DNA from: Gammaproteobacteria bacterium
GTDB taxonomy: Bacteria > Pseudomonadota > Gammaproteobacteria > Eutrophobiales > Eutrophobiaceae
Direction of reading: 5' to 3'
NCBI GenBank assembly: GCA_965222155.1
Contig: CBDCTH010000012.1
Span: 2,208,001 to 2,272,000, forward strand
Length of the DNA stretch: 64,000 nt
The notes under the pieces were generated by a model. The model saw only the letters and a program-made list of their open reading frames with translations, did no database searches and was not told where the DNA came from. Shown here in pieces: positions 8,514 through 52,259 of this stretch; the first letter of the stretch is position 1, and each line of letters starts with the position of its first letter. The position numbers and the translations under genes are program-made.

Positions 8514-8596
8514 TACGTTATTCAACCTGAAAATGACACGCTGTCTCAAAAGGCCACAGAGTAAAAATCTGAATTGAAACACGTGAACTGATAAAT

Positions 8597-9064: not shown

Positions 9065-9070
9065 TAAAAG

Positions 9071-9178
9071 CAGTTTCAGAAACTGGCTGATATGCTCCAT
9101 ATGCGCTGCCATTCCAGCACCAGGATCGAGAAAATACTCGGTGGGAACTTCCTGAGATTGATGCGAGAAGTATGGTAA
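9071..9178 (+). pseudogene. 3' remnant of a membrane dipeptidase (peptidase M19)
   Basis: Hand translation QFQKLADMLHMRCHSSTRIEKILGGNFLRLMREVW* contains the IEKILGGNxxRL C-terminal motif. There is no start codon. Confidence 0.7.
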
Positions 9179-9288
9179 GGCCAGAGAAATATATTGAATA
9201 AACAAAAAAATCTTAAAAGGACCTCACTGGGAGAGGGTTACACAAAAGCCGATCTGCCTACGGATCAACGCATAACGGAGCAATTTAA

Positions 9289-10569: not shown

Positions 10570-10683
10570 GTCAAAAAAATCCATACTCAAAGACCGTAAC
10601 CCCCTCCCAATAAACCGCGCCAATCTAAAGTAGAGATTTCTGGCAAATCTCACCACATTTCTTTAGCGGTATCGGAAACTTTT

Positions 10684-12111: not shown

Positions 12112-12135
12112 TATCTGTCCCCGGCGCGTCGACCC

Positions 12136-14309: not shown

Positions 14310-14311
14310 GG

Positions 14312-15457
14312 TCAGGCAACCGTCAGGGCGATCTTCCTGTTGTACCAGTTCAGGAAGAGGGAAAGACACAGGGAGACGAATACATAAACCGCCATGGTAA
14401 TCGCCATGATAAATACCGGTTGCCCCACCAGGTTGTTGACCGTTCCCACAAATACCGACACGACCTCTGGATAGGCTATGGCCGCGGCAAGTGACGTGCT
14501 TTTGAACAGGTTCAGGTAAACAGTCGTGAGCGGCGGGATGATGACGCGCAATGCCTGGGGGAACAGAATCAGGCGGTTGGTGAGATGGCGCGGCAGACCC
14601 AGTGAAGCGGCAGCCTCACTCTGGCCCCGGGGTATGGATGTGAGGCCCGAACGGACGATTTCACCGATATAGGTCGCATTATACATCGATAAACCCACCA
14701 CCAGGGACAGGAACTCAGGCATCATGACAATCCCGCCACGGTAACCGAAGCGGGTTTCCTGCGGAACCTGCCAGTGGCCGCCGGCAACTAAAATAACGGC
14801 CCCGGCCAGGCCTGCCAGGATCAAAAGATTCCACGAAGTCAACGGATTTGACCTGCCGGTTTCAGGCAGCGCCGGGCCACGTACAAGCTCTCTTTGCCGC
14901 TCTTTTTTGCGTAACGAATAAATCATGGCCCAGGCGAAAAACAGTGCACCCATTATCCACGCCCAGCCTTGCCCGAAACTGACCGCCGGCACAAACAACC
15001 CGCGGTTATTGAGAAAGATGCAATTGAAAAGTTCAATACTCTCGTTGCTGCGCGGCAAGGTGCGCAGTACGACAAAATACCAGAAGAATATTTGTAACAG
15101 GGAGGGAATGTTGCGGAATATTTCAATATAAGCGGTTGCAAGGTGGGATACCAGCCAGTTGTCGGACAGGCGGGCTATGCCTATAACCACTCCCAGGATA
15201 CTGGCGCAGATAATCGAGACCGCGGCCAGCAACAAGGTGTTCAGCAAGGCGACAACAAACGCATGGGCAATAGTGGAATTGGCATTATATGGGATGAGCT
15301 TCTGGCTTATCTCGAACCCTGCTCTCTTCCATAGGAAATCGATACCGGAATCAACCCCAAGGCGCGCAAGATTATCCTGCGTGGTCGCCGCGATCAGGTA
15401 CACCACTGCCCCGATAATGAATAACAGCGCTACCTGATAAACAATTTCCCGGTTCAC
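14312..15457 (-). CDS. Amino-acid ABC permease (AapQ/BztB-like)
   Basis: YIEIFRNIPSLLQIFFWY and GQSEAAASLGL. Confidence 0.9.
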   Translation of the reverse strand: MNREIVYQVALLFIIGAVVYLIAATTQDNLARLGVDSGIDFLWKRAGFEISQKLIPYNANSTIAHAFVVALLNTLLLAAVSIICASILGVVIGIARLSDNWLVSHLATAYIEIFRNIPSLLQIFFWYFVVLRTLPRSNESIELFNCIFLNNRGLFVPAVSFGQGWAWIMGALFFAWAMIYSLRKKERQRELVRGPALPETGRSNPLTSWNLLILAGLAGAVILVAGGHWQVPQETRFGYRGGIVMMPEFLSLVVGLSMYNATYIGEIVRSGLTSIPRGQSEAAASLGLPRHLTNRLILFPQALRVIIPPLTTVYLNLFKSTSLAAAIAYPEVVSVFVGTVNNLVGQPVFIMAITMAVYVFVSLCLSLFLNWYNRKIALTVA

Positions 15458-37289: not shown

Positions 37290-37295
37290 ACAGCC

Positions 37296-38006
37296 ATGAA
37301 TGCAAAAAATACAATTGAATTCAAACTGACGGGTAAATACGCACTTTTTACCGATCCTATTACAAAAATTGGTGGAGAGAAATTTTCATATCATGTGCCA
37401 ACTTATGAAGCAATCAAAGGGGTGCTGAAGTCGATTTACTGGAAACCAACATTTATATGGTACGTGGACGAAGTGCGAGTTATGAAGCCCCTAAGAACTC
37501 AGGCAAAAGGTATGAAACCAATGAAATACCACAGAGCTGGTAATGAACTATCAATTTATACCTATCTGCATGACGTGGAATATCAGGTGAAAGCGCATTT
37601 TGAGTGGAATGAGTATCGTCCGGAGTTGGAACAAGACCGCAATGACGGCAAACACTTCAATATTGCTAAACGTATGCTTGAAAAAGGCGGGAGACAGGAT
37701 ATTTTTTTGGGAGTCAGAGATTGTCAGGGATATGTTGAACCTTGCATATTTGAAGAAGAGAAAGGCTCTTACGATGATATCGAGGAACTCGGATTTGGTA
37801 TGATGTTTCATAGTTTTGGTTATCCAGATGAAACAGGCAAGAATGAGTTGGTAAAGCGCCTATGGAACGCCGTAATGAAGAAGGGTGTAATTGAATATCC
37901 GCGTCCCGAGGAATGTAAGACAGTTTTTGTCCGTCAAATGACTGCCAAACAGTTTGGTTTAGGGAAAAATGTGATAGCTGTGGGGGAAGAGGAAACACGG
38001 TTATGA
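37296..38006 (+). CDS. cas5: Type I-C Cas5 (Cas5d)
   Basis: ALFTDP..SYHVPTYEAIKG..IYWKP and FLGVRDC. Confidence 0.95.
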   Translation: MNAKNTIEFKLTGKYALFTDPITKIGGEKFSYHVPTYEAIKGVLKSIYWKPTFIWYVDEVRVMKPLRTQAKGMKPMKYHRAGNELSIYTYLHDVEYQVKAHFEWNEYRPELEQDRNDGKHFNIAKRMLEKGGRQDIFLGVRDCQGYVEPCIFEEEKGSYDDIEELGFGMMFHSFGYPDETGKNELVKRLWNAVMKKGVIEYPRPEECKTVFVRQMTAKQFGLGKNVIAVGEEETRL

Positions 38007-39970
38007 GTTGGCTTGCGAAACTCCACGAAACGTATGAAAACGGCGCGGCCTTGGACCTACCTATTAGTGATCAAATAATGCCCATCAGCCATACTCCGCA
38101 AAATGCCCATATCAATATTGTTATTGATATTGATGGAAAGTTCCAAAGAGCCGCAGTTTTGCAAAACACTCAAATAATATTACCTGCTACTGAAAGTTCC
38201 GCCGGGCGTAGCAGTGGCGAAACACCACATCCATTAGCAGATAAACTCCAATACGTTGCTAAAGACTATGCTGACTATGGAGGCAAGAAAAATTCGTATT
38301 TTGATAGTTATATAAAACAGCTTAAAAAATGGTGTGAATCAGATTTTTCACATCGACATGTTACTGCTGTATATCATTATGTTAAGAAAGGTACCGTGAT
38401 AAAGGATTTGATTGATTTTTCAATATGCCATATTTCTTCGGACGATATTTTACTGACCAAATGGGAAGATGAAAGTATTGAACCACCTGCGCTATTCAGA
38501 TCATTGCCCAAAGAAAAGGGAGAACTGGACCAGGGTAATGCGATGGTATGCTGGACAGTTGAAGTCAGCAGTGATCCGGACTCGAATACTTGGCAAAACA
38601 AATCCTTACAGGAAAAATGGATCAAATATAATGCTTCGATAGGAGGTATTGAAGGGCTTTGCTATGTGAGTGGAACTCAGAAAGTACTAATAACAAATCA
38701 CCCGGCTAAGCTCAGACATACAGGTGACAAGGCAAAGCTGATTTCTGCTAACGATATGGGCGGTTTTACCTTTCGAGGTCGGTTTACGGATTCCAAAAAA
38801 ACAGTGGAACAAACTGGCTATCAGTCTGTTGGTGTAGGATCAGATGTAAGCCAAAAAGCTCACAATGCTTTGCGTTGGCTCTTATCCCGTCAAGGATTTC
38901 GAAACGGAGATCAAGCTATCGTATCTTGGGCTGTTTCCGGTAAGGAAATTCCGCAACCTGTCCAAGATACCTGGTCAATGTTGGGCAAAGAACTGTCAGA
39001 AAATGCTGAATCTGGCACTATCCAACAACACGACGAAATTGACCATACTATAGATGTCGGTGAGTCTTTCGCTCACTCTCTGAACAAATATATGGCGGGG
39101 TATCGAGCGAAGCTGGCACCTGATGAAAGTATTGTCATTATGGCACTGGACGCCGCAACGCCGGGACGAATGGGTATTACCTATTATCGTGAAACCTTTG
39201 CATCTGAATTCATTGATGTGGTAAAACGGTGGCATGAAAATTTGGCTTGGTTCCAAAGATATATCCCTAATGGCAAAAAGAAGCCTAAAATCAAGATTGT
39301 CTGGCCACTCAGTGCACCGTCTCCCGAAATAATATGGGAGGCTGTTTATGGTAAAACGCTAACTGATAGTTTAAAGAAAAACCTTATCGAACGAATTCTT
39401 CCCTGCATTGTCGAGGGTAGACCGATACCTTTCGACATTGTTAATTCCTGTATTCAGCGGGCAAGCAACCCTAATGGTTTGGAGCATTGGGAATGGGAAC
39501 AATGCTTGGGTGTCGCTTGCTCATTATTCAAGGGTTACTATCGTCGTCATCCAGACCCAAACAAACGGAGAGATTATTTTATGGCTTTAGACGAAAAAAA
39601 TACCTCACGCGATTATTTATATGGTCGTCTATTAGCAGTTGCAGAGCGCATCGAATACATAGCGTTACAAGTGGCTAATGAGAAGCGATCCACTACTGCT
39701 GAACGGATGATGCAGCACTTTGCTGACAGGCCTTGCAGCAGTTGGCGGAATATTGAATTGGCCCTGCAGCCTTATATACAACGATTGAAAAATTCACGAG
39801 AAGGATTTTTAGTTAATCGTCAAAAAGAACTTGATGCCATTATGAGTTCTTTTGAGAGCAATGAATTTACTTCCGAGAACCCCCTGAGTGGAGAGTTTTT
39901 ATTGGGTTTTCATTGCCAGAGACTTTCTTTGTGGCAAAAAACTGAACCAACAACTGACCAAGATGAATGA
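38003..39970 (+). CDS. cas8c: Type I-C Cas8c (Csd1)
   Basis: MSWLAKL, HPLADKLQY, DAATPGR, YLYGRLLAVAE and FLLGFHCQ. Confidence 0.95.
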   Translation: MSWLAKLHETYENGAALDLPISDQIMPISHTPQNAHINIVIDIDGKFQRAAVLQNTQIILPATESSAGRSSGETPHPLADKLQYVAKDYADYGGKKNSYFDSYIKQLKKWCESDFSHRHVTAVYHYVKKGTVIKDLIDFSICHISSDDILLTKWEDESIEPPALFRSLPKEKGELDQGNAMVCWTVEVSSDPDSNTWQNKSLQEKWIKYNASIGGIEGLCYVSGTQKVLITNHPAKLRHTGDKAKLISANDMGGFTFRGRFTDSKKTVEQTGYQSVGVGSDVSQKAHNALRWLLSRQGFRNGDQAIVSWAVSGKEIPQPVQDTWSMLGKELSENAESGTIQQHDEIDHTIDVGESFAHSLNKYMAGYRAKLAPDESIVIMALDAATPGRMGITYYRETFASEFIDVVKRWHENLAWFQRYIPNGKKKPKIKIVWPLSAPSPEIIWEAVYGKTLTDSLKKNLIERILPCIVEGRPIPFDIVNSCIQRASNPNGLEHWEWEQCLGVACSLFKGYYRRHPDPNKRRDYFMALDEKNTSRDYLYGRLLAVAERIEYIALQVANEKRSTTAERMMQHFADRPCSSWRNIELALQPYIQRLKNSREGFLVNRQKELDAIMSSFESNEFTSENPLSGEFLLGFHCQRLSLWQKTEPTTDQDE

Positions 39971-39984
39971 CTAAGGAGAAATAT

Positions 39985-40842
39985 ATGAGCTTGGAAAACA
40001 AAATCGACTTTGCAATTATTTTTAGTGTACGAAACGCAAATCCAAATGGAGACCCCTTGAATGGAAATCGCCCACGCGTAGATTATGATGGTTTTGGTGA
40101 AATTACTGACGTATGCCTGAAAAGAAAAATTCGCGATCGTCTGCAATCTGAAGGACATTCTATTTTCGTGCAGTCTGATGAGAAGAAAACCGATGGTATG
40201 ACCAGTCTAAAAAATCGAGCCGAACATCAAGAACATGGTTTAGGTAAAGACGCGTTTAATAGCAAAGAGACTCCTATAGAAGAGACTGCTAAATCGGCTT
40301 GTAAAAAATGGTTTGATGTGCGGACATTTGGACAGTTATTTGCGTTTAAAAGCGATAGAAAAGATGGCGTGTCAATCCCAATTCGTGGGCCGGTTAGTAT
40401 TCAGTCAGCTTTTAGTTTGTCTCCAGTTAGTATCACCAGTACACAAATTACTAAGAGCGTTAGCGGAGAAGGCGATGGTGAGAAGAAAAGCTCTGACACA
40501 ATGGGTATGAAACATCGTGTCGATAGAGCAGTTTATGTCACTTACGGCGCCATGACTCCGCAGTTGGCTGATCGTACAGGATTTAATAATGAAGATGCAG
40601 AAACAATAAAGGCAGTGCTCCCAAAACTGTTCGAAGGAGACGCATCTTCCGCAAGACCCGAGGGCAGTATGTCTATAGATAAAGTAATCTGGTGGCAACA
40701 TAGCTCAAAATCAGGTCAGTATTCCTCATTCAAAGTACACGGGTCACTTAGGGATATTATCCAATCTAATGGGAGCTTTGATAAGGATAAATTAGAGAGA
40801 TCACTGGAAGGATTGGAGACTGAAATCATTGACGGTTTTTAA
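39985..40842 (+). CDS. cas7: Type I-C Cas7 (Csd2)
   Basis: ANPNGDP, TDVCLKRKIRD, DVRTFG, TMGMKH and SSARP. Confidence 0.95.
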   Translation: MSLENKIDFAIIFSVRNANPNGDPLNGNRPRVDYDGFGEITDVCLKRKIRDRLQSEGHSIFVQSDEKKTDGMTSLKNRAEHQEHGLGKDAFNSKETPIEETAKSACKKWFDVRTFGQLFAFKSDRKDGVSIPIRGPVSIQSAFSLSPVSITSTQITKSVSGEGDGEKKSSDTMGMKHRVDRAVYVTYGAMTPQLADRTGFNNEDAETIKAVLPKLFEGDASSARPEGSMSIDKVIWWQHSSKSGQYSSFKVHGSLRDIIQSNGSFDKDKLERSLEGLETEIIDGF

Positions 40843-40917
40843 ACCTTTGATGATGCAACTATTCGTAACGTCGGGTATACACGAGGTAGCCACTTTTTAT
40901 ATTCATCAAAGATAAAT

Positions 40918-41181
40918 ATGAGCATCGCCAGTTTTCGACTACAACCGAACATAGAATATCTTTTGAAAAAACTATCCAAAAAATTGGACAGCAGTAAAAA
41001 TTACCTGATCAATCAGACAGTAAAGGAATATGTCGAACGCCAAGCGATGGAGGATATACACTGGGCCGATACTCTGCTGTCTCTGAAGTCTGTACAGACA
41101 GGCAAGACAGTACCGGACGATCAGGTAATCTCATGGCTGAAAAGTTGGGGAACAGATAAAGAATTACCAAAACCTGAATAG
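40918..41181 (+). CDS. Ribbon-helix-helix (CopG-like) antitoxin
   Basis: N-terminal SFRL strand plus helices, and a WLKSWGTDKELPKP tail typical of RelE/ParE partners. Confidence 0.8.
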   Translation: MSIASFRLQPNIEYLLKKLSKKLDSSKNYLINQTVKEYVERQAMEDIHWADTLLSLKSVQTGKTVPDDQVISWLKSWGTDKELPKPE

Positions 41182-41474
41182 TGGATATTGAGTTTACGCC
41201 GGAGGCCTTAGACGACTTGGAACGACTCCGACAATTTTTAGTGGGTGCTGGCGCGCCCTAAGCTGAAGAGATGGCATCCGACATCATACGGAGTTTACAG
41301 AATTTACGATTATTTCCCCGCGTGAGGCTACCTGTGCGACGAGCGCCTGATCCTGATGTCGTACGTGACTGGTATATTGGCCGGTATTGTGTACGCTATC
41401 TTATTGGCAGCGATGCCATTTATATTCTGAGAATATGGCACGGCAAGGAAGATGAACGAAACCGTTTACCCTGA
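41181..41474 (+). pseudogene. RelE/ParE-family toxin with an in-frame stop
   Basis: GTG overlaps the antitoxin TAG. The frame reads DIEFTPEALDDLERLRQFL, hits TAA at 41259-41261, then continues ..YCVRYL..IYILRIWHGKE. Confidence 0.82.
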
Positions 41475-41488
41475 TACTTACCGTGTGA

Positions 41489-42121
41489 ATGATAAAATAC
41501 ATGGACAATCCAATCCCCATCTCCGCCTTACAGCATTACGCATTTTGTCCACGCCAATGCGCGTATATTCATATTGAACAACTTTGGCGGGATAATTTTC
41601 TGACTGCCAAAGGCAACCAACTCCATGAGCGTGTACACAGCAACAAAACAGAACAGCGCGGCCGTTTGAGAACGGAACGAGGAGTGCAGGTTTATTCAGC
41701 ACAATACGGTCTTACAGGAAAACTGGATTTACTTGAAATCAAGTCAGATTCCAGGCAACTAACCCCTATTGAATATAAACGCGGCAAACCTAAAACGGAT
41801 GATTGCGACCGCATTCAATTGTGTGCCCAAGTATTATGTTTGGAAGAGATGCGGGACGTCGTTATTCATCGCTCTGCGTTATGGTACTGGCAGGTACGCA
41901 AACGCGAATGGGTCAACATTGATAAACCGTTACGTGACCTGACCATCGACATTATTCATGCTACGCGTAAACTGTTGCAGGATGGGTCAATCCCGCCAGC
42001 GGTTTATTCGCCCTCATGCAAAGCATGTTCTTTCTTTGATGATATCTGCCACCCGCGTAAAACTGATCAATCCAAACGTTATGTAAGAGACATATTTGAG
42101 GATGAAGAAGTTACTCAATAA
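41489..42121 (+). CDS. cas4: Cas4
   Basis: ISALQHYAFCPRQ, IEYKRG, QLCAQ and C-terminal CKAC..C. Confidence 0.95.
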   Translation: MIKYMDNPIPISALQHYAFCPRQCAYIHIEQLWRDNFLTAKGNQLHERVHSNKTEQRGRLRTERGVQVYSAQYGLTGKLDLLEIKSDSRQLTPIEYKRGKPKTDDCDRIQLCAQVLCLEEMRDVVIHRSALWYWQVRKREWVNIDKPLRDLTIDIIHATRKLLQDGSIPPAVYSPSCKACSFFDDICHPRKTDQSKRYVRDIFEDEEVTQ

Positions 42122-43121
42122 TTTATACATAACTACCAATGGCAGTTATGTACACAAAGAACGGGAAACTCTCGCTATCAAGCAGGGAGGCAAAAAAGTT
42201 TTTCAACTACCTTTTCATACCATTCAAAATTTATTTTGCTTCGGCCATATCATGGTGTCACCGGATTTGTTAGCCGCCTGTGGCGAGAAAGGAATCAACG
42301 TTTCGTTTTTCTCTGAGTACGGAAAATTTCAATCACGAATACAGGGTCCGCAATCGGGAAATGTATTATTACGTAGGGCACAGTATCGTAAAGCAGATGA
42401 CTCGCCTCAGGTCCTGGCGCAACTCTTTGTTGCAGCCAAGCTTTCCAACTGTCGCACTATGGTTATGCGACATCAACGCAATCATGGTAAAAATGAGGAG
42501 CTTGAACGATTAGCAAAGCACTTGGGCAATAACCTCAAACGGCTGCAACAATGCCATGATATCGACCGAATGCGTGGAATTGAGGGAGATTCCGCCGCGT
42601 CTTATTTCGGATGTTTCAACCACTTGATTGTTGACGACCTGAAAGCGTCCTTTCCTTTTTCGGGAAGGACAAAAAGACCGCCTCTCGACCGTGTAAATGC
42701 CTTGCTCTCATTTGCCTATACCCTGTTAACCCATGAGATTGCTTCGGCCTTACAAGGTGTGGGGATCGATCCTTATGTGGGCTTTTTGCATACAGACCGG
42801 CCTGGCAGGTTGAGCCTGGCTCTGGATATGCTCGAAGAATTCCGTGCCTGGTGGTGCGATCGTTTTGTTTTGACACTGATTAACCGGAAACAGATTTCTC
42901 CGAATGACTTTATTGAAGAAGGCAGCGGTGCCATTCGTTTGAAGGATGATGCTCGAAAGAAATTCCTCGCCGCTTGGCAAGATAGAAAACAGGATGAACT
43001 GCAACATCCTTATACGGAGGAAAAGATTTATACCGGGCTGCTACCTCACGTTCAGGCTATGTTGCTTTCACGTTATTTACGCAAAGATATGGAAATCTAT
43101 ACCCCATTCATCTCGCGTTGA
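42102..43121 (+). CDS. cas1: Type I-C Cas1
   Basis: GNVLLRRAQY, RGIEG, GFLHTDRPGRLSLALDMLEEFR. Confidence 0.97.
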   Translation: MKKLLNNLYITTNGSYVHKERETLAIKQGGKKVFQLPFHTIQNLFCFGHIMVSPDLLAACGEKGINVSFFSEYGKFQSRIQGPQSGNVLLRRAQYRKADDSPQVLAQLFVAAKLSNCRTMVMRHQRNHGKNEELERLAKHLGNNLKRLQQCHDIDRMRGIEGDSAASYFGCFNHLIVDDLKASFPFSGRTKRPPLDRVNALLSFAYTLLTHEIASALQGVGIDPYVGFLHTDRPGRLSLALDMLEEFRAWWCDRFVLTLINRKQISPNDFIEEGSGAIRLKDDARKKFLAAWQDRKQDELQHPYTEEKIYTGLLPHVQAMLLSRYLRKDMEIYTPFISR

Positions 43122-43129
43122 GGTAGGTA

Positions 43130-43423
43130 ATGCTTGTATTAATCACCTATGACGTGAACCTGACTACTGAACAAGGTGCAAAAAGGCTGAGACAAATCAG
43201 CAAAACCTGTCTGGACTTTGGATTACGGGTGCAATATTCCGTTTTTGAATGTGAAATCACACCAGCACAGTGGGTAGAGTTAAAGGAAGCATTACTGAAC
43301 ATATATGACCCCGATAATGACAGCTTGCGCTTTTATCACTTGGGTTCCAAGTGGAAACGCAAGGTGGAACATTATGGTGCAAAAGGAACGCCGGATCTAC
43401 TAAGGGATACCTTGATCGTGTAA
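43130..43423 (+). CDS. cas2: Cas2
   Basis: LVLITYDV, RVQYSVFEC and DSLRFY. Confidence 0.97.
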   Translation: MLVLITYDVNLTTEQGAKRLRQISKTCLDFGLRVQYSVFECEITPAQWVELKEALLNIYDPDNDSLRFYHLGSKWKRKVEHYGAKGTPDLLRDTLIV

Positions 43424-43601: not shown

Positions 43602-45455
43602 GTCGCGCCCCTTCGGGGGCGCGTGGATTGAAACAAATTCATCCATCGACATCTGACTCGATGATTCCCGTCGCGCCCCTTCGGGGGCGCGTGGATTGAA
43701 ACTGACTTATAGCGGCTTTTGACCTTTTCCAGGTCGGTCGCGCCCCTTCGGGGGCGCGTGGATTGAAACTCTACTGTCTTCTCAAACTGCTCCTTGAACA
43801 ACCGTCGCGCCCCTTCGGGGGCGCGTGGATTGAAACAGCCATTTTCTGCTGCTTTTCTTTTTGCTTCTTCGTCGCGCCCCTTCGGGGGCGCGTGGATTGA
43901 AACTTCTTCTATCACGAATTTGCCGTAGTAAGTCATTGTCGCGCCCCTTCGGGGGCGCGTGGATTGAAACTCAATGTGTTGTGGGTTGTATTCCGGTGAT
44001 TGCAGTCGCGCCCCTTCGGGGGCGCGTGGATTGAAACAGTACATTAGCCCAAATATCAAAGGGGACACAATCGTCGCGCCCCTTCGGGGGCGCGTGGATT
44101 GAAACCAGGGACTAGACCAACAGATGAAAGAAGGACTGAGTCGCGCCCCTTCGGGGGCGCGTGGATTGAAACTTCAGTTTCACGTCTTCCGGCATTATCA
44201 TCAGTATTTGTCGCGCCCCTTCGGGGGCGCGTGGATTGAAACAGCACATTAACGGTGCGCGATGACGCGGTCAAAAAGTCGCGCCCCTTCGGGGGCGCGT
44301 GGATTGAAACAGCACACCCCAAACCCAAAGATTTGGCGTGGCCTGTCGCGCCCCTTCGGGGGCGCGTGGATTGAAACCCATCGATTTGCTGTGTCTTGAT
44401 AGTAAGGTTTTGTCGCGCCCCTTCGGGGGCGCGTGGATTGAAACCGTATATTGCTCCTATTTTCCTTAGTCCTTCTTTGTCGCGCCCCTTCGGGGGCGCG
44501 TGGATTGAAACCCCAGGATCCCTGAAGTACCGATTCCAGATACGCAGTCGCGCCCCTTCGGGGGCGCGTGGATTGAAACTTCGCTGATAATAAATGATGA
44601 GTAGTGTGTCATTGTCGCGCCCCTTCGGGGGCGCGTGGATTGAAACCTACGTCTTGTAGTTGTTCTTTCAGTTTTGATAGGTCGCGCCCCTTCGGGGGCG
44701 CGTGGATTGAAACAGCACATTGACGGTAAGAAACGACGCGGTGAAAAGTCGCGCCCCTTCGGGGGCGCGTGGATTGAAACGTTTATGTCGGGCTTTTTGT
44801 TGTCAGGGGTTGACGTCGCGCCCCTTCGGGGGCGCGTGGATTGAAACGCTCACCATCGGGCGGCTGGGCCGTGGCGCTCAAGTCGCGCCCCTTCGGGGGC
44901 GCGTGGATTGAAACCATCGTGGCGTGGTGGACAAACAACCTACTGAGGGTCGCGCCCCTTCGGGGGCGCGTGGATTGAAACGCTCACCATCGGGCGGCTG
45001 GGCCGGGGCGCTCAAGGTCGCGCCCCTTCGGGGGCGCGTGGATTGAAACATGCCCATGACACCAACCAAAGAAGTAATCGATGGTCGCGCCCCTTCGGGG
45101 GCGCGTGGATTGAAACCTAGACCTATTCAAGTAACAAACATAAGCAAACTAGTCGCGCCCCTTCGGGGGCGCGTGGATTGAAACAAACACGCTTGAAAGG
45201 ACGAGCATTTGCCAGAATTGTCGCGCCCCTTCGGGGGCGCGTGGATTGAAACATTGCAGGATTTATGGATGTTTAAAATACCTGAACGTCGCGCCCCTTC
45301 GGGGGCGCGTGGATTGAAACGTTTTCTTGCAAGTAAACTCCACTACTTCTATGTTGTCGCGCCCCTTCGGGGGCGCGTGGATTGAAACATCGTAGCCTTG
45401 TTTTATAAATTCGATCCAGGTCGTCGCGCCCCTTCGGGGGCGCGTGGATTGAAAC
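43602..45455 (+). CRISPR. Type I-C array: 28 identical 33-bp repeats and 27 spacers of 34-37 bp
   Basis: Repeat GTCGCGCCCCTTCGGGGGCGCGTGGATTGAAAC, counted by hand. Confidence 0.99.
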
Positions 45456-45588
45456 TGTTGATTTTGGAAATATCATTAGTTATACTGCGTATTTCACTGA
45501 ATCCTGCCACCCGTTTCACGTGAAGGCTGCCACCCGGAACGCAGCAAAGCTGCCACCCCCAGGCGCGTGATGACGTGGGTGTTGGTCA

Positions 45589-46347
45589 TTATGACTCTGT
45601 TGGGGTCATCGTCGTCAATGTTTTTTTCTGTTTTCGCATGGATTCACCCTTGAGTTGTATTTTGTAAGCATTGTGCACCAGGCGGTCAAGGATGGCATCG
45701 GCGAGGGTGGGGTCGCCGATGCTGTGATGCCATTTTTCGGCCGGTAATTGACTGGTAGCGAGGGTGGAGCGTGCGCCGTGGCGGTCTTCCAGGATTTCCA
45801 GCAGGTCACGGCGCTGCTCTGCGTTCAATTTGACCAGGCCCCAGTCATCGAGGATGAGGGCCTGGGTTTTTGCCAGGGTGGTGAGGAGCTTGGGATAGCG
45901 TCCATCGCCCTTGGCGATGGACAGGTCCTGGAGGAGTCTGGGCAGGCGCAGGTAGAGGGCGGTGTAGCCGTGCCGGCAGGCGTTGTGTGCCAGGGCACAG
46001 GCGAGCCAGGTTTTGCCGACGCCGGTGGGGCCGGTGATGAGGATATTGAGGTGTTCGCGGACCCACTGGCAGGTGGCCAGTGATTGCATCAGGGATTTAT
46101 CCAGTCCGCGCGGGGGGCGATAGTCGATATCCTCCAGGGTGGCATTGTGTTTGAGGCGGGCGCGTCGCAGCCGGTTGGACAGGCGTCGGTTGTCCCGTTC
46201 GGTTATCTCCCGGTCGACGAGCAGGCCGAGGCGTTCCTCGAAGCTGAGGGTATCGATATCGGGCACGGACATCTGCTCGGTGAGGGCGGCAGCCATACCG
46301 GTGCATTTCAAGGTCTGGAGTTTGTCCAGGGTGGGATGTATCAACAT
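45589..46347 (-). CDS. istB: IS21 helper ATPase
   Basis: GPTGVGKT, LILDDWG and DPTLADAILDRLVHNA. Confidence 0.95.
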   Translation of the reverse strand: MLIHPTLDKLQTLKCTGMAAALTEQMSVPDIDTLSFEERLGLLVDREITERDNRRLSNRLRRARLKHNATLEDIDYRPPRGLDKSLMQSLATCQWVREHLNILITGPTGVGKTWLACALAHNACRHGYTALYLRLPRLLQDLSIAKGDGRYPKLLTTLAKTQALILDDWGLVKLNAEQRRDLLEILEDRHGARSTLATSQLPAEKWHHSIGDPTLADAILDRLVHNAYKIQLKGESMRKQKKTLTTMTPTES

Positions 46348-46366
46348 AGCAGTCTCCTGTCGTGGG

Positions 46367-47908
46367 TCAGTGGTAGTAGGATGGGCCACGGATATTGTCG
46401 TGGTCATCAGGTAAGGCCGCCTCGGTCTGCTCGGCGAGGGGTTGCCGGTCCAGGCCGTGGCGGAGGATGGATTCGATACTTTTGTAACTGTGGCTGCCCA
46501 GGGTGAGGGCGCGTTGGCAGGCGGCCTCCAGCCGGTCGTCGCCGTAGGTTTTAGCCAGGCGCAGGATCCCTAAGCAACTGCGGTAGGCCTGCTGGGGGTG
46601 CTTGCGGGCAGACAGGACACGGAGGATAAGGGTTTCTGTGGCCGGCCCGACCGGCGCGGCCCAGCGGCCCAGGCGTTGCGGGGACCACTCGCCGGCCTGG
46701 CGGTGCGCCTCGGGCATGTGGGCCGGGACGGTGGTATGACGTGCCTTATGATACGAGCGTCGATGGCTGGCGATGCGCTGGCCGCGATGAAAGCATTCAA
46801 TGGTGTTGGCGGTGATGCGCACGTCCAGTTGTTTTTTGATGAGCGCGTGGGGCACGGAGTAGTAATGGCCATGGACCTCGATGTGATAGTCGATATGGAC
46901 CCGCGCCTGCTTCCACTCGGCGTATTCGTACGCTTCGACGGGCAGGGGCCGCAGGGCCGGTTTATCCAGTTGCTCAAACAGCGCGCGCCGGGTGCCCGGC
47001 AGTTTCTTGAAGGGCCGGTTGTTGAGCGTCTCCAGCAACGCCCGGATGGCGCGGTTCAACTCGGCCAGGGAGAAGCACTGACGCTGGCGCAGGGCGGCGA
47101 GGATCCAGCGCTCTACCACCTGTACCGCGACCTCGGCTTTCGCTTTGTCACGGGGACGACGCACCCGTGCCGGGACAATGGCGACCCCGTAATGGGTGGC
47201 CAGGTCCTGGCAGGTGGGGTTGATGTCCGGCTCATAGCGATGCGCCTTGCTGACCCCGGCGCGTAAATTATCCGGCACCACCACTTCAGGCACACCGCCC
47301 AGGTAGGTAAAACAGCGCACGTGGGCGCCGATCCAATCTTCCAGGCCCTGGCTCCAGGTGGCCTCGGCATAGGTGTAGTTCGACGCGCCCAGCGCTGCCA
47401 CAAACACCTCTGCCTCACGGACTTCCCCGGTTGCCGGGTTGATGACCTGAGCACGCATACCGGCATAATCCACGAACAGCTTCTCACCGGCCCGGTGCTC
47501 CTGGCGCATGACCAGATCCAGCTTGCCACGCCACGTCCGATAATGCTGGCAGAACCAGGTGTACTGATAGCCTTGCGGGTGAGTCTGGCGATACTCATGC
47601 CATAACAACTGCAAGGTGACGCCCGGGCGTTTCAACTCCCGATGAATGTGTGACCAATCGGGCACGCCGCGGGCCGCGGCGGGTACAGCTGGGGCGGGCG
47701 GAAACAGCAGACGCTCCAGCGCCCCGTCATCCAGCGCCGCAGGCAGCGGCCAACCCAGCCCGGCCGCCTCGGCCCGGCGCAGGTACTCATCCACCGCCGG
47801 ACGGGAAATGCCACAACTCCTGGCTGTCTGGCGTTTGCTCAGGCCCTGGCTCCAGCACAGGCGTAATACGTCTTTTATCTTTCTCATGGACAACCTCTTT
47901 GCAGGCAT
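46367..47908 (-). CDS. istA: IS21 transposase
   Basis: FVDYAG, VPDNL, PRDKAKAE and HDNIRGPSYYH. Confidence 0.96.
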   Translation of the reverse strand: MPAKRLSMRKIKDVLRLCWSQGLSKRQTARSCGISRPAVDEYLRRAEAAGLGWPLPAALDDGALERLLFPPAPAVPAAARGVPDWSHIHRELKRPGVTLQLLWHEYRQTHPQGYQYTWFCQHYRTWRGKLDLVMRQEHRAGEKLFVDYAGMRAQVINPATGEVREAEVFVAALGASNYTYAEATWSQGLEDWIGAHVRCFTYLGGVPEVVVPDNLRAGVSKAHRYEPDINPTCQDLATHYGVAIVPARVRRPRDKAKAEVAVQVVERWILAALRQRQCFSLAELNRAIRALLETLNNRPFKKLPGTRRALFEQLDKPALRPLPVEAYEYAEWKQARVHIDYHIEVHGHYYSVPHALIKKQLDVRITANTIECFHRGQRIASHRRSYHKARHTTVPAHMPEAHRQAGEWSPQRLGRWAAPVGPATETLILRVLSARKHPQQAYRSCLGILRLAKTYGDDRLEAACQRALTLGSHSYKSIESILRHGLDRQPLAEQTEAALPDDHDNIRGPSYYH

Positions 47909-48044
47909 CTGTGTCTCCTCCTTTCAGTAGAAATAAGGACACAGGATACCCTTGGTTATCCACGTCAAACGCGCCGGTTATCTACCTCCTTGGGGGTGGC
48001 AGCTTTGCCGTGTAATGGGTGGCAGCTTTGCTGTGAAATACGCA

Positions 48045-48174: not shown

Positions 48175-49467
48175 TTATATCAACCAATAGGGCCAATAGA
48201 GAATCCTGTTCCTTTTATCCCAGTAAGGTAGTCCACCATAAGCGACAATGCCGAAGGCAACGCCATGGCTCAGGATAAAATCGACAAGTAATGAGGTATC
48301 AACCTGGCTGCGGTCGATGCCGGCTTTGGCCTCCAGCGGGATCATCCGCTTGCCCGTGCTTATCACGAAATCAATTTCTCCGGCCCCGTATTTAACCTTT
48401 TTATTGGCGTCTATGGTGAATGGCTTGTAGTAGTTGATTTGGGTTTTCAAGGCTTTTAACTGCAAAATCTGCCTGAGTCTGTTGTGCAGATATCCCTCCA
48501 CACGAAAGCCTCTTTCCGTATCACTTTCCAGCAGCCCCTCACCGGTTAAATAAGTGACAATGCCCGGGTCGATATAGGAAAAATTGTTGAGGTAGGAGCG
48601 ACGCTCTTCACCGATTAGAAGCGGTTTCTTTTTAAGCAGGTAACCCTGGTTGATAAGGGCGTCAATGACCTTGTTGATTTGGTCTCGTCTTCTTAAGCCG
48701 GTTCTTTGGAAAACTCCCTGGTAGGCAAATTCCTTGGAGTCCAGCCTGGCCAATTCCAGTTTAATCGTATCCGTAGTGGTTTCATTATTGACAGACATAA
48801 GTTCAAAACCACGCTCAACGATTTTACGTATTTCCACCAGTCCGGCGTCATTATCCTGCGCAAGGTAGACCAGGGGGAAACCACCATAGCACAGGTAGTC
48901 GGCTATGATCCGCTTGATGCCTTCATTAAGATCCAGGGGTATTTCCACGTCTCGCCCGTTTTGCCAATTGAACAACACATCTCGGAATTGCCGAACCCAT
49001 TCCGGTTCCACCATGTTTTCATGACAGAGGATTTCTCCGAGAGAGAAAGGCGCCAGGTTCCAGAGATCGGCCCGGCGTTGCAACCTCTTTTTGGCCTCCG
49101 TTTGCAGAAAAGCAGGGTTGGAACCGGAAATGATGAAGGACGCGCCGGTATGATCGAAGGCATATTTTACTGCATCGAAAATGAGTTCTGATTTTTGCAC
49201 TTCATCGATGAAAATGAGGGCGGGCCAAGTGGTCTGCGCGCTGACCTGCTCGTGCAGGTAGCGGGTATTCCAGGCTACGGCTTGGCGGAATTGCACGTCG
49301 TCCCCAGTATAGGAAAAGATCCGAAAGTCGTTTTCCAGCTTTTTCAGGACATGTTTAATGAGCGTCGTCTTGCCGGAACCGACTGTTCCGGCCAATATAA
49401 GCCCGGAGGGAGAATCCGGATTGAAAAAACGCAACAAATTCCCTTGTAATTCACGAGTTATGTACAT
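48175..49467 (-). CDS. Divergent AAA_14 + DUF4143 ATP-binding protein
   Basis: GTVGSGKT, IDEVQK, SGS, YGGFP, DPGI and EIDFVI..PLEAK. Confidence 0.85.
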   Translation of the reverse strand: MYITRELQGNLLRFFNPDSPSGLILAGTVGSGKTTLIKHVLKKLENDFRIFSYTGDDVQFRQAVAWNTRYLHEQVSAQTTWPALIFIDEVQKSELIFDAVKYAFDHTGASFIISGSNPAFLQTEAKKRLQRRADLWNLAPFSLGEILCHENMVEPEWVRQFRDVLFNWQNGRDVEIPLDLNEGIKRIIADYLCYGGFPLVYLAQDNDAGLVEIRKIVERGFELMSVNNETTTDTIKLELARLDSKEFAYQGVFQRTGLRRRDQINKVIDALINQGYLLKKKPLLIGEERRSYLNNFSYIDPGIVTYLTGEGLLESDTERGFRVEGYLHNRLRQILQLKALKTQINYYKPFTIDANKKVKYGAGEIDFVISTGKRMIPLEAKAGIDRSQVDTSLLVDFILSHGVAFGIVAYGGLPYWDKRNRILYWPYWLI

Positions 49468-49472
49468 GATAA

Positions 49473-49534
49473 GAGATTTTACTGAATTTTTTGAAAAATC
49501 TCCAGAGATTTTACCCCATGTTTCGTAGAATCTC
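49473..49534. promoter_or_regulatory. Two tandem 30-bp imperfect palindromes upstream of the ATPase
   Basis: GAGATTTTAC..AAAATCTC (49473-49502) and GAGATTTTAC..GTAGAATCTC (49505-49534). Confidence 0.6.
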
Positions 49535-49579
49535 CGAGGGTTCGTCCTGGTGATTTATGGTGTGATTATTCGTGGGTAA

Positions 49580-49608
49580 GTGTTCCCCACCCGTGTGGGG
49601 ATGAACCG
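49580..49608 (+). CRISPR. Solitary type I-E CRISPR repeat
   Basis: GTGTTCCCCACCCGTGTGGGGATGAACCG, 29 bp, with canonical I-E ends and hairpin. No second copy was seen. Confidence 0.8.
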
Positions 49609-49656
49609 TTGTTTTTGTCTTTCTGATGTTCTATACTTTTTCTACGGAGCTATACC

Positions 49657-50154
49657 ATGACATATCTACTTCAATTCCTCGATTCCCTTGCCTCCAACGG
49701 CGCCAATATTTTAATTATCGGCTTGTTGATATGGCATACCGTCGATATGCATTGGATTAAGAAATCCTTGCAGGATATGGACAAAAGCATCAAAAGTCTC
49801 GACTCAAAACTCAGCACCCGTATCGACAATTCTGACTCAAACCTCAGCGCCCGTATCGACAATTCTGATTCAAAACTCGACACCCGTATCGACAGTCTTG
49901 ACTCAAAACTCGACACCCGTATCGACAGTCTTGACTCAAAACTCAACACCCGTATCGACAGTCTTGACTCAAAACTCAACACCCGTATCGACAGTCTTGA
50001 CTCAAAACTCGACACCCATATCGACAGTCTTGACTCAAAACTCAACACAATGAGTGACAAAGTTTCAACCCTTGAAGGATCGGTAAACACGCTGATTCAG
50101 CTACAACAATACAAACAACCTCCCAAGTCACAACGAACCGGCACTGACGGTTAA
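49657..50154 (+). CDS. Membrane-anchored coiled-coil protein with eight 11-aa repeats
   Basis: GGAG RBS, hydrophobic N-terminus, and IDSLDSKLDTR-type units (33-bp tandem repeat, 49789-50052). Confidence 0.8.
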   Translation: MTYLLQFLDSLASNGANILIIGLLIWHTVDMHWIKKSLQDMDKSIKSLDSKLSTRIDNSDSNLSARIDNSDSKLDTRIDSLDSKLDTRIDSLDSKLNTRIDSLDSKLNTRIDSLDSKLDTHIDSLDSKLNTMSDKVSTLEGSVNTLIQLQQYKQPPKSQRTGTDG

Positions 50155-50276
50155 CCCGATCTTCCCTTTTTTTCGACTGGATGTCCTTGTTTCGCAACAT
50201 GATTGACAAAAAGATCAAGTTTTCAAGCAGCGCTTTTTGCGCATTGTATCTGCTCCTCAATGATTTTCTCCACCCA

Positions 50277-50310
50277 GTATTTTCCAATATGAAATGAGCC
50301 TGAAGGAGGG
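50277..50310 (-). mobile_element. Isolated IS terminus
   Basis: GTATTTTCCAATATGAAATGAGCCTGAAG closely resembles 62216-62245, which follows a transposase remnant. Confidence 0.55.
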
Positions 50311-50390
50311 ACGTGATGGCTTGTCTCTTATTTACTGAGCCCGGACAAGCGCAGATTGTCAGTCTGTACCGGGCGCGCTATACTCAGTAC

Positions 50391-51530
50391 ATGAACGCTT
50401 CCTCGGACCCATTCCTGTTTCAGCCGGGCGCTGGTAAGCTTCCGCCCTATCTGGCCGGGCGCGAGCGCGAACAAACCGTACTCCGGCAGTTTCTGGGTTC
50501 AGTGCAGGCGGGCAACGGCCCACCCGGCGACGTGGCGCTGATCGGGCCCCGAGGTAACGGCAAGACCGCGCTCATGCGTTGGTTCGAGAACGAATGCATC
50601 CAATTCGACGCGACGGACGTGGTGTGGCTGACTCCCAGCTCTATCCCGGATGTGGCTGGGCTGGCAACGCGATTGGCGCCTCCCAGGCGATTTCAGCACC
50701 TGCTGCCGGATTTAGTGACGGTCGGAATCGGCGGCACGCGTGCGACATGGGACCTGAGCAATGCCCCCGGTTCCCTGGCCGAGCTGTTGACTGCACGTTG
50801 CAAGGCCAGCCCCTTGGTGTTGTTGCTGGACGAGGCCCACAGCTTGGACACAGATATCGGTCAGGCGCTATTGAATGCCAGTCAGGACGCGCGGGCCAAG
50901 GCCCCGTTTCTGCTGGTGCTGGCCGGCACCCCCAACCTGCCGGCGCAGTTCAACGCCATGGGCGCAACGTTCTGGAATCGCGCGAAGAAACTGGGTATCG
51001 GCCGGCTGGACGAGACGGCCACGGCTGAGGCCCTGGTACGACCGCTGGCCGACGAAGGGGTACGCCTGAGTAAAGCGGCCCTGTCCCAGGTGGTGGCCGA
51101 GAGTCAATGCTACCCGTACTTTATCCAGCTCTGGGGGCATGCCCTGTGGACGGAGGCACGAAACCGAGGTGCGGCTTACATCGACCTGCCGCTGGTGGAG
51201 ACGGCCCGTCCGGCCTTTACTGAGGAGCAGAACAACTACTACCAGAACCGCTACGAGGAGTTGCATCGACAAGGGCTGCTTGTCGTGGCGGCCCGGGTCG
51301 CCGCGGCCTGGCGCGGTCAGGCCACGCTGCCGGACCACGTGCTGGAGGCCGTCATCGCCCGGGACGGCGGAGGAAACGACATGGCGCTGGATCTGTTGGA
51401 CCAGTTGAGGGATCTGGGCTATGTATGGAAACCTTCAGGCAGCGCCACCCTCTGGGAACCCGGCATCCCTAGCCTGCTGGACTATGTGCAGACAAATGCA
51501 CCCCCAAACGAATCCGTTTCTGCTCCATGA
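50391..51530 (+). CDS. AAA-family ATP-binding protein (AAA_16/22-like), GC-rich
   Basis: FQPGAGKLPPYLAGRERE, GPRGNGKT, LLLDEAH and YPYFIQLWG. Confidence 0.85.
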   Translation: MNASSDPFLFQPGAGKLPPYLAGREREQTVLRQFLGSVQAGNGPPGDVALIGPRGNGKTALMRWFENECIQFDATDVVWLTPSSIPDVAGLATRLAPPRRFQHLLPDLVTVGIGGTRATWDLSNAPGSLAELLTARCKASPLVLLLDEAHSLDTDIGQALLNASQDARAKAPFLLVLAGTPNLPAQFNAMGATFWNRAKKLGIGRLDETATAEALVRPLADEGVRLSKAALSQVVAESQCYPYFIQLWGHALWTEARNRGAAYIDLPLVETARPAFTEEQNNYYQNRYEELHRQGLLVVAARVAAAWRGQATLPDHVLEAVIARDGGGNDMALDLLDQLRDLGYVWKPSGSATLWEPGIPSLLDYVQTNAPPNESVSAP

Positions 51531-51571
51531 TAATGGCTTCATCCTTGATCGGGCAGGCAATGTAACAGGGG

Positions 51572-51687
51572 AATCAATGGGGTCAGACTCGATTGATTTT
51601 TCTGCCTGCGAAAGTTTACCCCTGTATGCTGTTGAGCAGGGGCAAGAATCTAATGAGCTAAATTAATCGAGTCTGACCCCATTGATT
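51572..51687. repeat. MITE with a 28-bp inverted repeat (GGGGTCAGA family)
   Basis: AATCAATGGGGTCAGACTCGATT ... AATCGAGTCTGACCCCATTGATT. Confidence 0.85.
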
Positions 51688-52259
51688 TTTACCTCCTCAT
51701 ACCGAAAACAATCGGTCGTATGATCATTGACCATACCAGTGGCCTGCATGTGCGCGTAGACGATAGTAGGCCCGACGAAGTTGAAACCGCGGCGTTTGAG
51801 GTCCCTGGAGATTATATTGGACAGGGGGGTTTCCGCCGGTATCTCGGAGCCCTGTTGCCAGGCGTTTTGAATGGGTCTGCCGTCGACGAAGTCCCAGATG
51901 TAATCATTGAAGGTGCCGAATTCCTCCCTGACCTTGATAAACGCCCGGGCGTTTCTGATTGCGGAACGGATCTTGAGTTTGTTCCTGATGATGGCTGGGT
52001 TTTCCAGCAGGGCGTTTACCTTGCCCTCGTCATATCCCGCCACCCTGGTGAAATCGAAATTATCAAACGCCAGCCGGTAGGCCGGGCGTTTTTTTAACAC
52101 CGTAATCCAGCTCAGTCCGGCCTGAGCGCCTTCCAGCACCAGGAATTCAAACAGCTTCCTGTCGTCATGCAGCGGAACGCCCCACTCCTCGTCGTGATAG
52201 CTCCGGTAGCTGACGTCATCCCCAAGGGACCACCTGCAACGGACAGGCTCGGACTTCAT
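51663..52259 (-). CDS. tag: DNA-3-methyladenine glycosylase I
   Basis: RCRW, YHDEEWG, LEGAQAGLSW, IIRNKLKI and VNDH..C. Confidence 0.95.
   Translation of the reverse strand: MKSEPVRCRWSLGDDVSYRSYHDEEWGVPLHDDRKLFEFLVLEGAQAGLSWITVLKKRPAYRLAFDNFDFTRVAGYDEGKVNALLENPAIIRNKLKIRSAIRNARAFIKVREEFGTFNDYIWDFVDGRPIQNAWQQGSEIPAETPLSNIISRDLKRRGFNFVGPTIVYAHMQATGMVNDHTTDCFRYEEVKINGVRLD

Follow-up and report, generated by a model that had tools for sequence, protein, structure and literature searches.

CreA of the CreTA system is a crRNA-like regulator, which shares the subtype of the resident Cascade and pairs partially with a PAM-flanked site in the promoter of the gene it regulates. As presented by Shu et al. 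(2024, 10.1101/2024.12.27.630466), the crlRNAs of CRISPR-supervised immune systems likewise belong to the subtype of the Cascade present and show partial pairing with such a promoter site. The RNA anti-CRISPRs (Racrs) of phages and plasmids are found on mobile elements, and in the account of Camara-Wilpert et al. (2023, PMC10651486) 83% of them have the subtype of the cas operon in their host; the Racr candidates in that account were picked for a promoter within 250 bp of the repeat. According to Shmakov et al. (2023, PMC10120712), standalone repeat-like copies near CRISPR-cas loci arise and vanish sporadically, and the regulatory mini-arrays described there contain a second degraded repeat and a spacer matching a nearby promoter. 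Orphan arrays, as characterized by Bernheim et al. (2019, PMC7145637), are short and thought to be degrading. As far as these two last reports describe them, solitary or degraded repeats and orphan arrays are already well known (PMC10120712, PMC7145637).

A stretch of 64,000 nucleotides from a genome of the Gammaproteobacteria (the window; its genome assembly is named G000) was analysed here, which contains one solitary type I-E repeat near a complete type I-C system. The repeat resembles the Racr/SRU units in that it is solitary and full-length, with an intact hairpin and without associated cas genes of its type. Compared with the Racrs as defined in PMC10651486, it differs in being chromosomal, in having no predicted upstream promoter, and in its mismatch with the subtype of the host; none of the three Racr features (mobile element, upstream promoter, and matching host cas operon) was found for the window's repeat. 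The likeness to the cases presented in PMC10120712 is that a single repeat is located outside an array, in an intergenic region and in a CRISPR-cas neighbourhood. Unlike those cases, however, the cas operon of the window is I-C, the matching I-E genes are absent, and there is neither a degraded partner nor a promoter-matching spacer.

The repeat is also placed beside a non-cas gene in a defence locus with an I-C system, similar to the crlRNA units as they are outlined in 10.1101/2024.12.27.630466; whereas it is a unit of type I-E inside an I-C locus, for which no target was found. In the genome-wide flank search, no flank complementary to a nearby promoter next to a PAM was revealed, which is the feature of a crRNA-like regulator. 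As in the orphan arrays covered by PMC7145637, the repeat of the window can be assigned to a subtype for which the genome has no cas cluster; compared with the arrays of that report, it represents an end point, with one repeat and zero spacers. Moreover, the orphan I-E repeats are located directly behind the I-C array in four genomes (G000, G007, G016 and G018), which differs from the arrays described in PMC7145637.

Sequence and copy number of the repeat

The solitary repeat (GTGTTCCCCACCCGTGTGGGGATGAACCG, 29 bp, intact) is located at 49580-49608 on the + strand. It is composed of a 21-nt hairpin part (GTGTTCCCCACCCGTGTGGGG) and an 8-nt handle (ATGAACCG), and a 6-bp stem with a 4-nt loop is present in its predicted fold. 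The unit is a type I-E repeat, with the length of 29 nt, the G+C-rich palindromic core and the conserved 3' handle. Only one copy of GTGTTCCCCACCCGTGTGGGGATGAACCG was found in the window at up to 3 mismatches, compared with 0.00 expected from 100 shuffles. The sequence is also single copy in the whole G000 assembly (4,553,329 bases in 12 contigs), which is 100% complete by marker genes and 7.28% contaminated.

No partner repeat, including degenerate ones, was found between 47 and 53 kb. The next best 29-mers in this region differ from it at 11-12 positions, a value at the background level of the whole window, and no 29-mer of this kind is in register about 61 bp from the repeat. The unique copy and the background-level 29-mers indicate that the repeat is real, intact and truly solitary. 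A CRISPR array has at least two repeats with regular spacers, and the locus at 49580 contains one copy. The exact repeat variant, with 1 mismatch allowed, was absent from 400 other genomes of the class, and the Rfam search (evalue mode) of 49300-50400 gave no match.

These results agree with the initial annotation of the window, which had described an intact 29-bp I-E repeat without a partner about 61 bp away on either side and had proposed a search for the repeat throughout the genome. The repeat is present as described, 1-3 mismatches from the I-E repeats of congeners; the next best 29-mers are off register, and the 4.55-Mb genome has a single copy.

Search for type I-E cas genes

The window was also annotated as having no I-E cas genes, which is consistent with the Pfam analysis: the resident system is a full I-C operon, and no I-E gene was found in the window. 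The search of the whole genome for I-E cas genes, which had been suggested as well, was run with four family models and five proteins. The models PF08798, TIGR01907, TIGR01869 and PF09481 gave 0 matches for Cas6e, Cas7e and Cse1 in G000, and tblastn of the five Cascade proteins of the congener G022 against G000 gave no match at E <= 0.01. The I-E variant expected to go with this repeat is covered by the tblastn analysis with congeneric Cascade proteins. In the control genomes, matches to the I-E family models were found in Thermus only and not in E. coli, although the Cas1 control did match E. coli, which shows that this control carries cas genes. Distant I-E variants may therefore be missed by the family searches. 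Four Cas1 loci are present in G000, two of which were typed, the I-C system of the window and a type II-C Cas9 locus. A very divergent I-E system, or I-E genes on an unassembled plasmid, might still be present in G000.

Organization of the defence island

The type I-C cas operon (cas3, cas5c, cas8c, cas7c, cas4, cas1 and cas2; assigned with Pfam) is located at 34848-43423 on the + strand, and is preceded by a DUF4143 ATPase gene. The I-C array at 43602-45455 (+ strand) has 28 repeats and is oriented like the I-E repeat. The I-C repeat of the window is unrelated to the I-E repeat, and no standalone I-C-like repeats were found outside the I-C array in the window. An IS21-family element (istA and istB; 45490-48040, - strand; Pfam IstB_IS21, rve and Mu-transpos_C_2), with terminal repeats at 45492-45536 and 47994-48039, sits between the I-C array and a block containing the second DUF4143/AAA_14 ATPase gene. 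This block (48175-49537, - strand) includes the gene itself (48175-49467) and two 32-bp palindromic units upstream of it (49472-49535). Since the ATPase gene is on the - strand, the I-E repeat on the + strand points away from it, as the initial annotation had stated. The 42-bp gap between the conserved block and the repeat (49538-49579) has no relative found.

On the other side of the repeat, a promoter-like TTGTTT-N17-TATACT was read from the sequence at 49609-49637 on the + strand (TTGTTT at 49609-49614 and TATACT at 49632-49637). It is followed by GGAG and the ATG of an open reading frame for a coiled-coil protein of 165 aa with 11-residue repeats (49657-50154, + strand; from the ORF list), and the start codon is 48 bp beyond the I-E repeat. 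The promoter-like site, the ribosome binding site and the downstream ORF with 11-aa repeats had all been annotated before, and all are present. The first hexamer is weak, with 3/6 positions agreeing with TTGACA, and the site was not listed by the consensus promoter scan of 49300-50400 (at least 4/6 per hexamer).

A tandem repeat of 33 bp x 7.7 at 49795-50048 codes for the 11-residue repeats of the ORF, and one hydrophobic N-terminal segment was recognized by eye. Every match of the 165-aa protein to Pfam was under its curated cut-off; the matches to PHROG were weak and to entries of unknown function, and the protein atlas gave unnamed clusters only. Relatives of the ORF are present in 18 of the 40 relatives searched, mostly as multiple copies, and in two Dehalococcoidia MAGs (47-60% identity). 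In the contig collections, one weak locus was revealed in the metagenome contigs and three loci in the genome contigs, and none was found in the viral_contigs or phages collections. The coiled-coil gene, which encodes a putative small membrane protein, probably uses its own weak promoter.

The region behind the ORF starts with one copy of a repeated element of the genus (50184-50275; sequence matches of 83-87%), which was matched at the contig ends of G016, in G007, and at one further site of G000. Next to it is an IS scar (50276-50312, + strand), the solo terminal repeat of a multi-copy IS with 15 other sites in G000; all of the 15 matches share the sharp left edge, and at least 3 run on into an identical longer element. 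An AAA_16-type ATPase of 405 aa is encoded at 50313-51530 on the + strand (Pfam AAA_16, E = 6.7e-11). This ATPase belongs to a family that is multi-copy in the genus; it was matched 5 times in G000 and up to 26 times in a single congener. Behind the ATPase gene comes the tag glycosylase gene, which is on the - strand. The G+C content is 44% in the ORF, 63% in the AAA_16 ATPase gene and 53% in the genome, and the jump between the ORF and the ATPase gene suggests that the segment is a patchwork. The region of 49538-51699, which also carries the IS end scar and the other repeated element, is a mosaic.

The 1.36-kb DUF4143 block was matched in six congeners at 80-91% identity, and the homology stops at 49534-49537. 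Four of these congeners have no other DNA of the window near the block; its sharp edges and unrelated surroundings there suggest that the block has probably moved. The repeat was also considered as a part of the DUF4143 block, which was dropped, since the block homology ends 42 bp before the repeat in 6/6 relatives. The distance from the DUF4143 gene to tag is 181 bp in G007, and 1248 bp of other DNA lies between the two genes in G014; the window region of 49538-51699 is absent from both genomes. With the two genes so close together in G007 and G014, this region is a lineage-specific patchwork.

Type I-E repeats in congeneric genomes

I-E repeats were found with a looser pattern in 6 of the 23 genomes of the genus, and Cas6e in 2 of the 23. 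The I-E array of G002 contains at least 40 repeats beside Cas6e, each of which has 3 mismatches, all in the loop region, from the window's repeat. In G022, three repeats with 1-3 mismatches are located right after the Cse1-Cse2-Cas7e-Cas5e-Cas6e genes, and the third repeat has 1 mismatch. Because the repeats of G002 and G022 adjoin I-E genes, the subtype of the window's repeat is fixed as I-E.

The four genomes which have I-E repeats but no Cas6e are G000, G007, G016 and G018, and in all of them the I-E repeats come directly behind the I-C array and are oriented like it. Of the 8 I-E repeats of G016, six are in array spacing and two are scattered; the 8 repeats of G018 form four groups. Three sequence variants are present among the 6 units of G007, and two of these units are 1 mismatch from the window's variant. 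The I-E repeats of G007, G016 and G018 are broken up by kb-sized inserts, and the islands of G018 and G007 end at the same tag flank as the window. These orphan I-E arrays of the relatives are unusual.

Without the IS21 element and the DUF4143 block, the I-E repeat of the window would be about 210 bp behind the last I-C repeat; the first I-E repeat of G016 and G018 is about 300-370 bp behind the last I-C repeat. The geometry in the three genomes is suggestive, though no sequence similarity was found between the gaps. The flanks of the window's repeat were also compared with the DNA around the I-E repeats of G007, G016, G018, G002 and G022, and no similarity was found.

Origin of the solitary repeat

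A unique repeat of I-E type in a genome in which no I-E cas genes were found, the mosaic flanks, and the orphan I-E repeats at the same locus of relatives suggest that the repeat is probably what is left of an orphan I-E array, an inert last unit within a defence island that changes quickly. The relatives of such a remnant are expected to carry more than one repeat of this type at the locus, as is the case in G016, G018 and G007. The initial annotation had offered the last relic of an array as one of its readings, and this part agrees with the orphan I-E repeats behind the I-C array in the four congeneric genomes without Cas6e.

The ancestral I-E array in this lineage would have been located just behind the I-C array, without cas genes of its own. 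The island from the I-C array to tag has probably been reshaped quickly by IS insertions, gene-sized insertions, and deletions between repeats. One I-E repeat would then have been left in G000, 42 bp from the DUF4143 block and 48 bp before the unrelated coiled-coil gene, beside which it would be placed by accident. If a transcript runs through the repeat, the hairpin could form; no cutting or loading would be expected, because the genome has no Cas6e or I-E Cascade. We infer that this site formerly contained an array and that the repeat has no present role.

Some observations count against such a relic. The repeat is perfectly intact, which suggests that it became an orphan recently or that it is maintained. 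Compared with the window, the I-E units of G007 are on the other side of the DUF4143 gene; the window's repeat is thus not strictly equivalent to them in position, which calls for one more rearrangement or for the DUF4143 block having been inserted independently. Moreover, neither flank of the repeat is common to any relative, and therefore no direct state before the loss was seen.

Inserts between the repeats of relatives

The kb-sized inserts in the relatives are a more interesting by-product of the analysis than the lone repeat. G018 has inserts of 1100, 1868 and 467 bp exactly between intact I-E repeats. The first two (1100 and 1868 bp) are truncated, diverge from each other, and represent one and the same part of a siphophage tail module. 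This part covers the end of the major tail gene, a small oppositely oriented gene, the gene for the tail assembly chaperone, and the beginning of the tape measure gene. These tail inserts are collinear with a prophage of G005, to which they are homologous right up to the base that precedes the repeat, and the tape measure frame continues into the I-E repeat. A third copy of this tail-module part, which is inverted, is located in G007 between the I-C array and the first I-E repeat. G007 also has a 1.3-kb segment with a gene pair of the HTH/DUF4160 type, bounded on both sides by 56-bp direct repeats, in which 27 nt are joined to the I-E repeat, and the same module (85-91% identity) is located in G016 between I-E repeats of another variant. 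In addition, a small ORF of G016 starts about 35 bp after a solitary I-E repeat, and a relative of the AAA_16 ATPase (45% identity) lies behind the I-E repeats of this genome.

Recombination between phages and spacers has been described previously. A crossover between spacer and protospacer was tried as an explanation for the G018 inserts and was not supported, as the right ends of two inserts have no AAG-type PAM before the 32-mer.

The inserts suggest another origin for the window's repeat, which might be the junction scar of a captured cassette; the repeat would have come with the coiled-coil gene, or would mark the insertion of this gene, with foreign DNA having entered an I-E array exactly between repeats or having recombined with it through a repeat. 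Such a scar is unlikely, although several observations in the relatives point to it. The inserts of G018 are exactly between repeats, with two of them being truncated siphophage tail pieces; the gene pair of G007 is enclosed by the 56-bp direct repeats and the same module is found between the repeats of G016; and the distance from the solitary repeat to the ORF is about 35 bp in G016 and 48 bp in the window. However, the ORF of the window is complete, with no truncation, no relatives of it were found in the phage or viral contig collections, and the window contains no tail-module part; the two G018 insert ends also lack the preceding AAG-type motif that is predicted by a spacer-based crossover. 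As a single repeat is left in the window, a repeat-bounded insert cannot be shown. The repeat would still be a relic if it came from a captured cassette, of gene capture instead of simple array collapse.

In a more general form, the cas-less I-E arrays behind I-C arrays would be landing pads for kb-sized foreign DNA, which would enter exactly between repeats or by recombination at one of them, and the repeat of the window with its coiled-coil gene would be one captured cassette; we consider this generalization quite doubtful. The cargo of such landing pads would be truncated phage tail pieces, the putative HTH/DUF4160 pair (possibly a toxin-antitoxin), and small membrane protein genes. If this were true, the CRISPR repeats would be recombination sites for gene capture, independent of interference.

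Possible functions of the repeat

Compared with an inert remnant of an orphan I-E array, a functional repeat-derived RNA is very improbable. It would be a Racr-like decoy for the I-E Cas proteins of a system that is incoming or co-resident, or a regulator of the CreA/crlRNA type for the downstream gene. The hairpin and the handle are intact, and the site is within a defence island and adjoins ATPase genes. Solitary units with such roles are known from the examples given in PMC10651486, PMC10120712 and 10.1101/2024.12.27.630466, and a matching I-E array (85% threshold) was detected in the same samples. However, Cas6e, Cas7e and Cse1 were not found in G000, and the sole Cascade encoded nearby is of type I-C, to which the repeat is unrelated. 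The consensus scan of 49300-50400 revealed no promoter-like site on the + strand within the 280 bp upstream of the repeat, and the first site on this strand is at 50356.

The site is also on no recognisable phage or plasmid. The flanks of the repeat are chromosomal and syntenic with the relatives, with IS scars and no phage or plasmid genes; the 783-bp region of 49538-50320 had no match in the plasmid or phage collections, and the exact repeat is absent from the viral contig collection. No second repeat-like unit was found, and the 32-mer flanks have no target above chance: when they were compared as spacers with the rest of the genome, the best matches were 12-14 nt (E >= 0.27), which is the chance level. 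The repeat is not conserved beside the relatives of the ORF either. I-E-like repeats (up to 9 mismatches) were found in 0 of 24 loci in the flanks of the relatives of the neighbouring genes, including 15 loci of the ORF and 9 of the ATPase.

The initial annotation had favoured a Cas6e-processed RNA, a Racr or a CreA-type regulator next to the array relic, and this part was not supported, as no I-E Cas6e, upstream promoter, second unit or flank target was found. The check it had proposed, whether homologues of the ORF also have an upstream repeat, gave 0/15 ORF-relative loci (up to 9 mismatches), and the comparison of the 32-nt flanks with host promoters, which it had proposed, returned genome-wide matches of 12-14 nt at the chance level only.

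A plain hairpin independent of Cas proteins, which would insulate the divergent DUF4143 promoter region from the coiled-coil gene or terminate transcription between them, is hardly credible: the region of 49560-49660 folds somewhat better than shuffled sequences (-26.4 kcal/mol, z = -2.06, with 7/200 shuffles equally stable) and a T-rich stretch begins 9 nt past the stem, but the hairpin was not listed by the terminator scan, the T run is not directly after the stem, no upstream gene is transcribed towards the repeat, and the hairpin is absent in the relatives sharing the same DUF4143 promoter region.

Assembly of the locus

The assembly at the repeat was compared with Logan contigs. The left junction (49527-49608) and the right junction (49580-49899) were both recovered in run X1 with no mismatch, at depths of 73.7 and 95.9, respectively; the depth of the surrounding genome is about 100. 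Among the contigs listed for the runs X1 and X3, none bridges both flanks, and the break is exactly at the repeat, because the assembly graph branches there. As the contigs stop at the repeat, the physical join is based on the assembly and on synteny.

X1 and X3 (from another study) also hold contigs with two repeats separated by 31/32 nt, which match the window's repeat at a threshold of 85%. The depth of these contigs is about 23-24, about a quarter, and one repeat in X3 is preceded by a different, A+T-rich flank. The repeat-spacer-repeat contigs and the different flank indicate that another strain or replicon with a live matching I-E array is present in those samples. Such matching contigs at about a quarter of the depth in the same samples count against the reading of the repeat as a relic.

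An assembly artefact, in which unrelated flanks were joined or an array was collapsed via the 29-bp repeat shared with another array, is most improbable. The contigs of X1 and X3 break at the repeat with no bridging contig listed, the same runs hold the repeat-32 nt-repeat contigs, and G000 is rated 7.28% contaminated; whereas both junction contigs are mismatch-free at the depth of the genome (73.7 and 95.9, compared with about 100) and the spacer contigs are at about 23-24. Moreover, the assembled contig is 3.5 Mb long, and the flanking genes DUF4143 and tag are also neighbours in G007 and G014, which makes a chimeric join unlikely.

Implications for CRISPR arrays and defence islands

As the probable remnant of an orphan I-E array, the lone repeat would be a clear case of how the decay of a CRISPR array ends, in a genome which either lost, or never had, the matching I-E cas genes. 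It also illustrates that a solitary repeat beside a promoter is, by itself, not evidence for an RNA regulator. If the insert pattern of G018 and G007, in which gene-sized pieces directly abut the repeats, is mechanistic, it would bear on the exchange of DNA between arrays and phages, and on the gain of cargo by defence islands.

Other CRISPR-cas loci of the genome

The genome that carries the window contains several further CRISPR-cas components. Within the I-C operon, cas7c is separated from cas4 by a gap of 646 bp (window 40843-41488), in which no I-C-like repeat was found. A type II-C locus was also identified (G000:C12:3054169-3054849 and neighbours; positions 9963-13731 of locus L085), which encodes a Cas9 of 961 aa and a Cas1; no tandem array was detected in the 20 kb fetched around it. 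Two additional Cas1 loci are located at C12:580296 and C12:3362390 of the same genome.

Repeated and possibly mobile elements around the solitary I-E repeat

Upstream of the solitary I-E repeat (window 49580-49608) lies a DUF4143/AAA_14 ATPase gene, which together with two upstream 32-bp palindromic units (49472-49535) occupies window 48175-49537. This 1.36-kb block has identical sharp homology edges in six other genomes of the genus, its surroundings are unrelated in four of these six, and one of the congeners (G014) contains an additional partial copy of the 3' end. The block is possibly mobile or cassette-like in nature, with palindromes that resemble operators or recombination sites.

The region between the I-E repeat and the tag gene also contains repeated sequences. 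A solo insertion-sequence terminal repeat of 30-37 bp (50276-50312) overlaps the start of the AAA_16 ATPase ORF. This terminal repeat also matches 15 further sites of the genome, and at least three of these matches extend into a longer element of identical sequence. In front of it lies a 92-bp fragment of a different element (50184-50275), which is found at contig ends in the congener G016. Two 23-bp arms (51572-51594 and 51665-51687) form a perfect inverted repeat that overlaps the end of the tag gene. Across 51484-51751, contigs from the public sequencing run X1 reach 12-24 times the depth of the flanks; the inverted-repeat element (51572-51687) is therefore probably a multi-copy miniature element. 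Two kinds of gene in this region are multi-copy as well. The family of the AAA_16 ATPase (50313-51530) has five matches in this genome, the count rises to as many as 26 in the congener G010, and in G016 one family copy follows the I-E repeats. The small coiled-coil ORFs also occur in multiple copies across the genus.

Inserts next to I-E repeats in congeners

The I-E repeat island of the congener G018 (locus L074, G018:C2:2292000-2308000, positions 5721-9515, minus strand) contains eight intact repeats in four groups. Three inserts abut the repeats exactly, with lengths of 1100 bp (8326-9425), 1868 bp (6307-8174) and 467 bp (5750-6216). Two of the three correspond to part of a siphophage tail module, truncated and mutually divergent in sequence, and comprise the end of the major tail gene, the chaperone and the start of the tape measure gene; a prophage in G005 (locus L079, 4608-6569) is collinear with both. 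The inserts look like 'giant spacers' within a cas-less array.

The G007 island (locus L017, G007:C44:8000-26000, positions 5963-10175) contains six I-E units, which fall into three sequence variants, and an inverted copy of the G018-type tail-module piece (~6125-7664) lies between its last I-C and first I-E repeat. The island also carries an HTH/DUF4160-type gene pair on a 1.3-kb segment, which is bounded by 56-bp direct repeats (~8720-8775 and ~10059-10114), each consisting of 27 nt plus the I-E repeat. This pattern looks like integration via recombination at the I-E repeat.

I-E systems in the genus and in the sequencing runs

The I-E locus of G022 (locus L018, G022:C1:4140000-4159999, positions 10135-15351) encodes Cse1, Cse2, Cas7e, Cas5e and Cas6e, followed ~430 bp further on by only three repeats. 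Neither cas1, cas2 nor cas3 was seen among ORFs of at least 120 aa in the neighbouring 5 kb, and the locus may be a Cascade-only system.

Repeat-spacer-repeat contigs matching the window I-E repeat (threshold 85%) were found in X1 and in a second public run, X3, at about one quarter of the depth of the window genome. Two of their spacers are common to both runs, and in X3 the sequence before one I-E repeat differs from that in the window and is A+T-rich. A live I-E array is therefore present in a co-resident strain or replicon.
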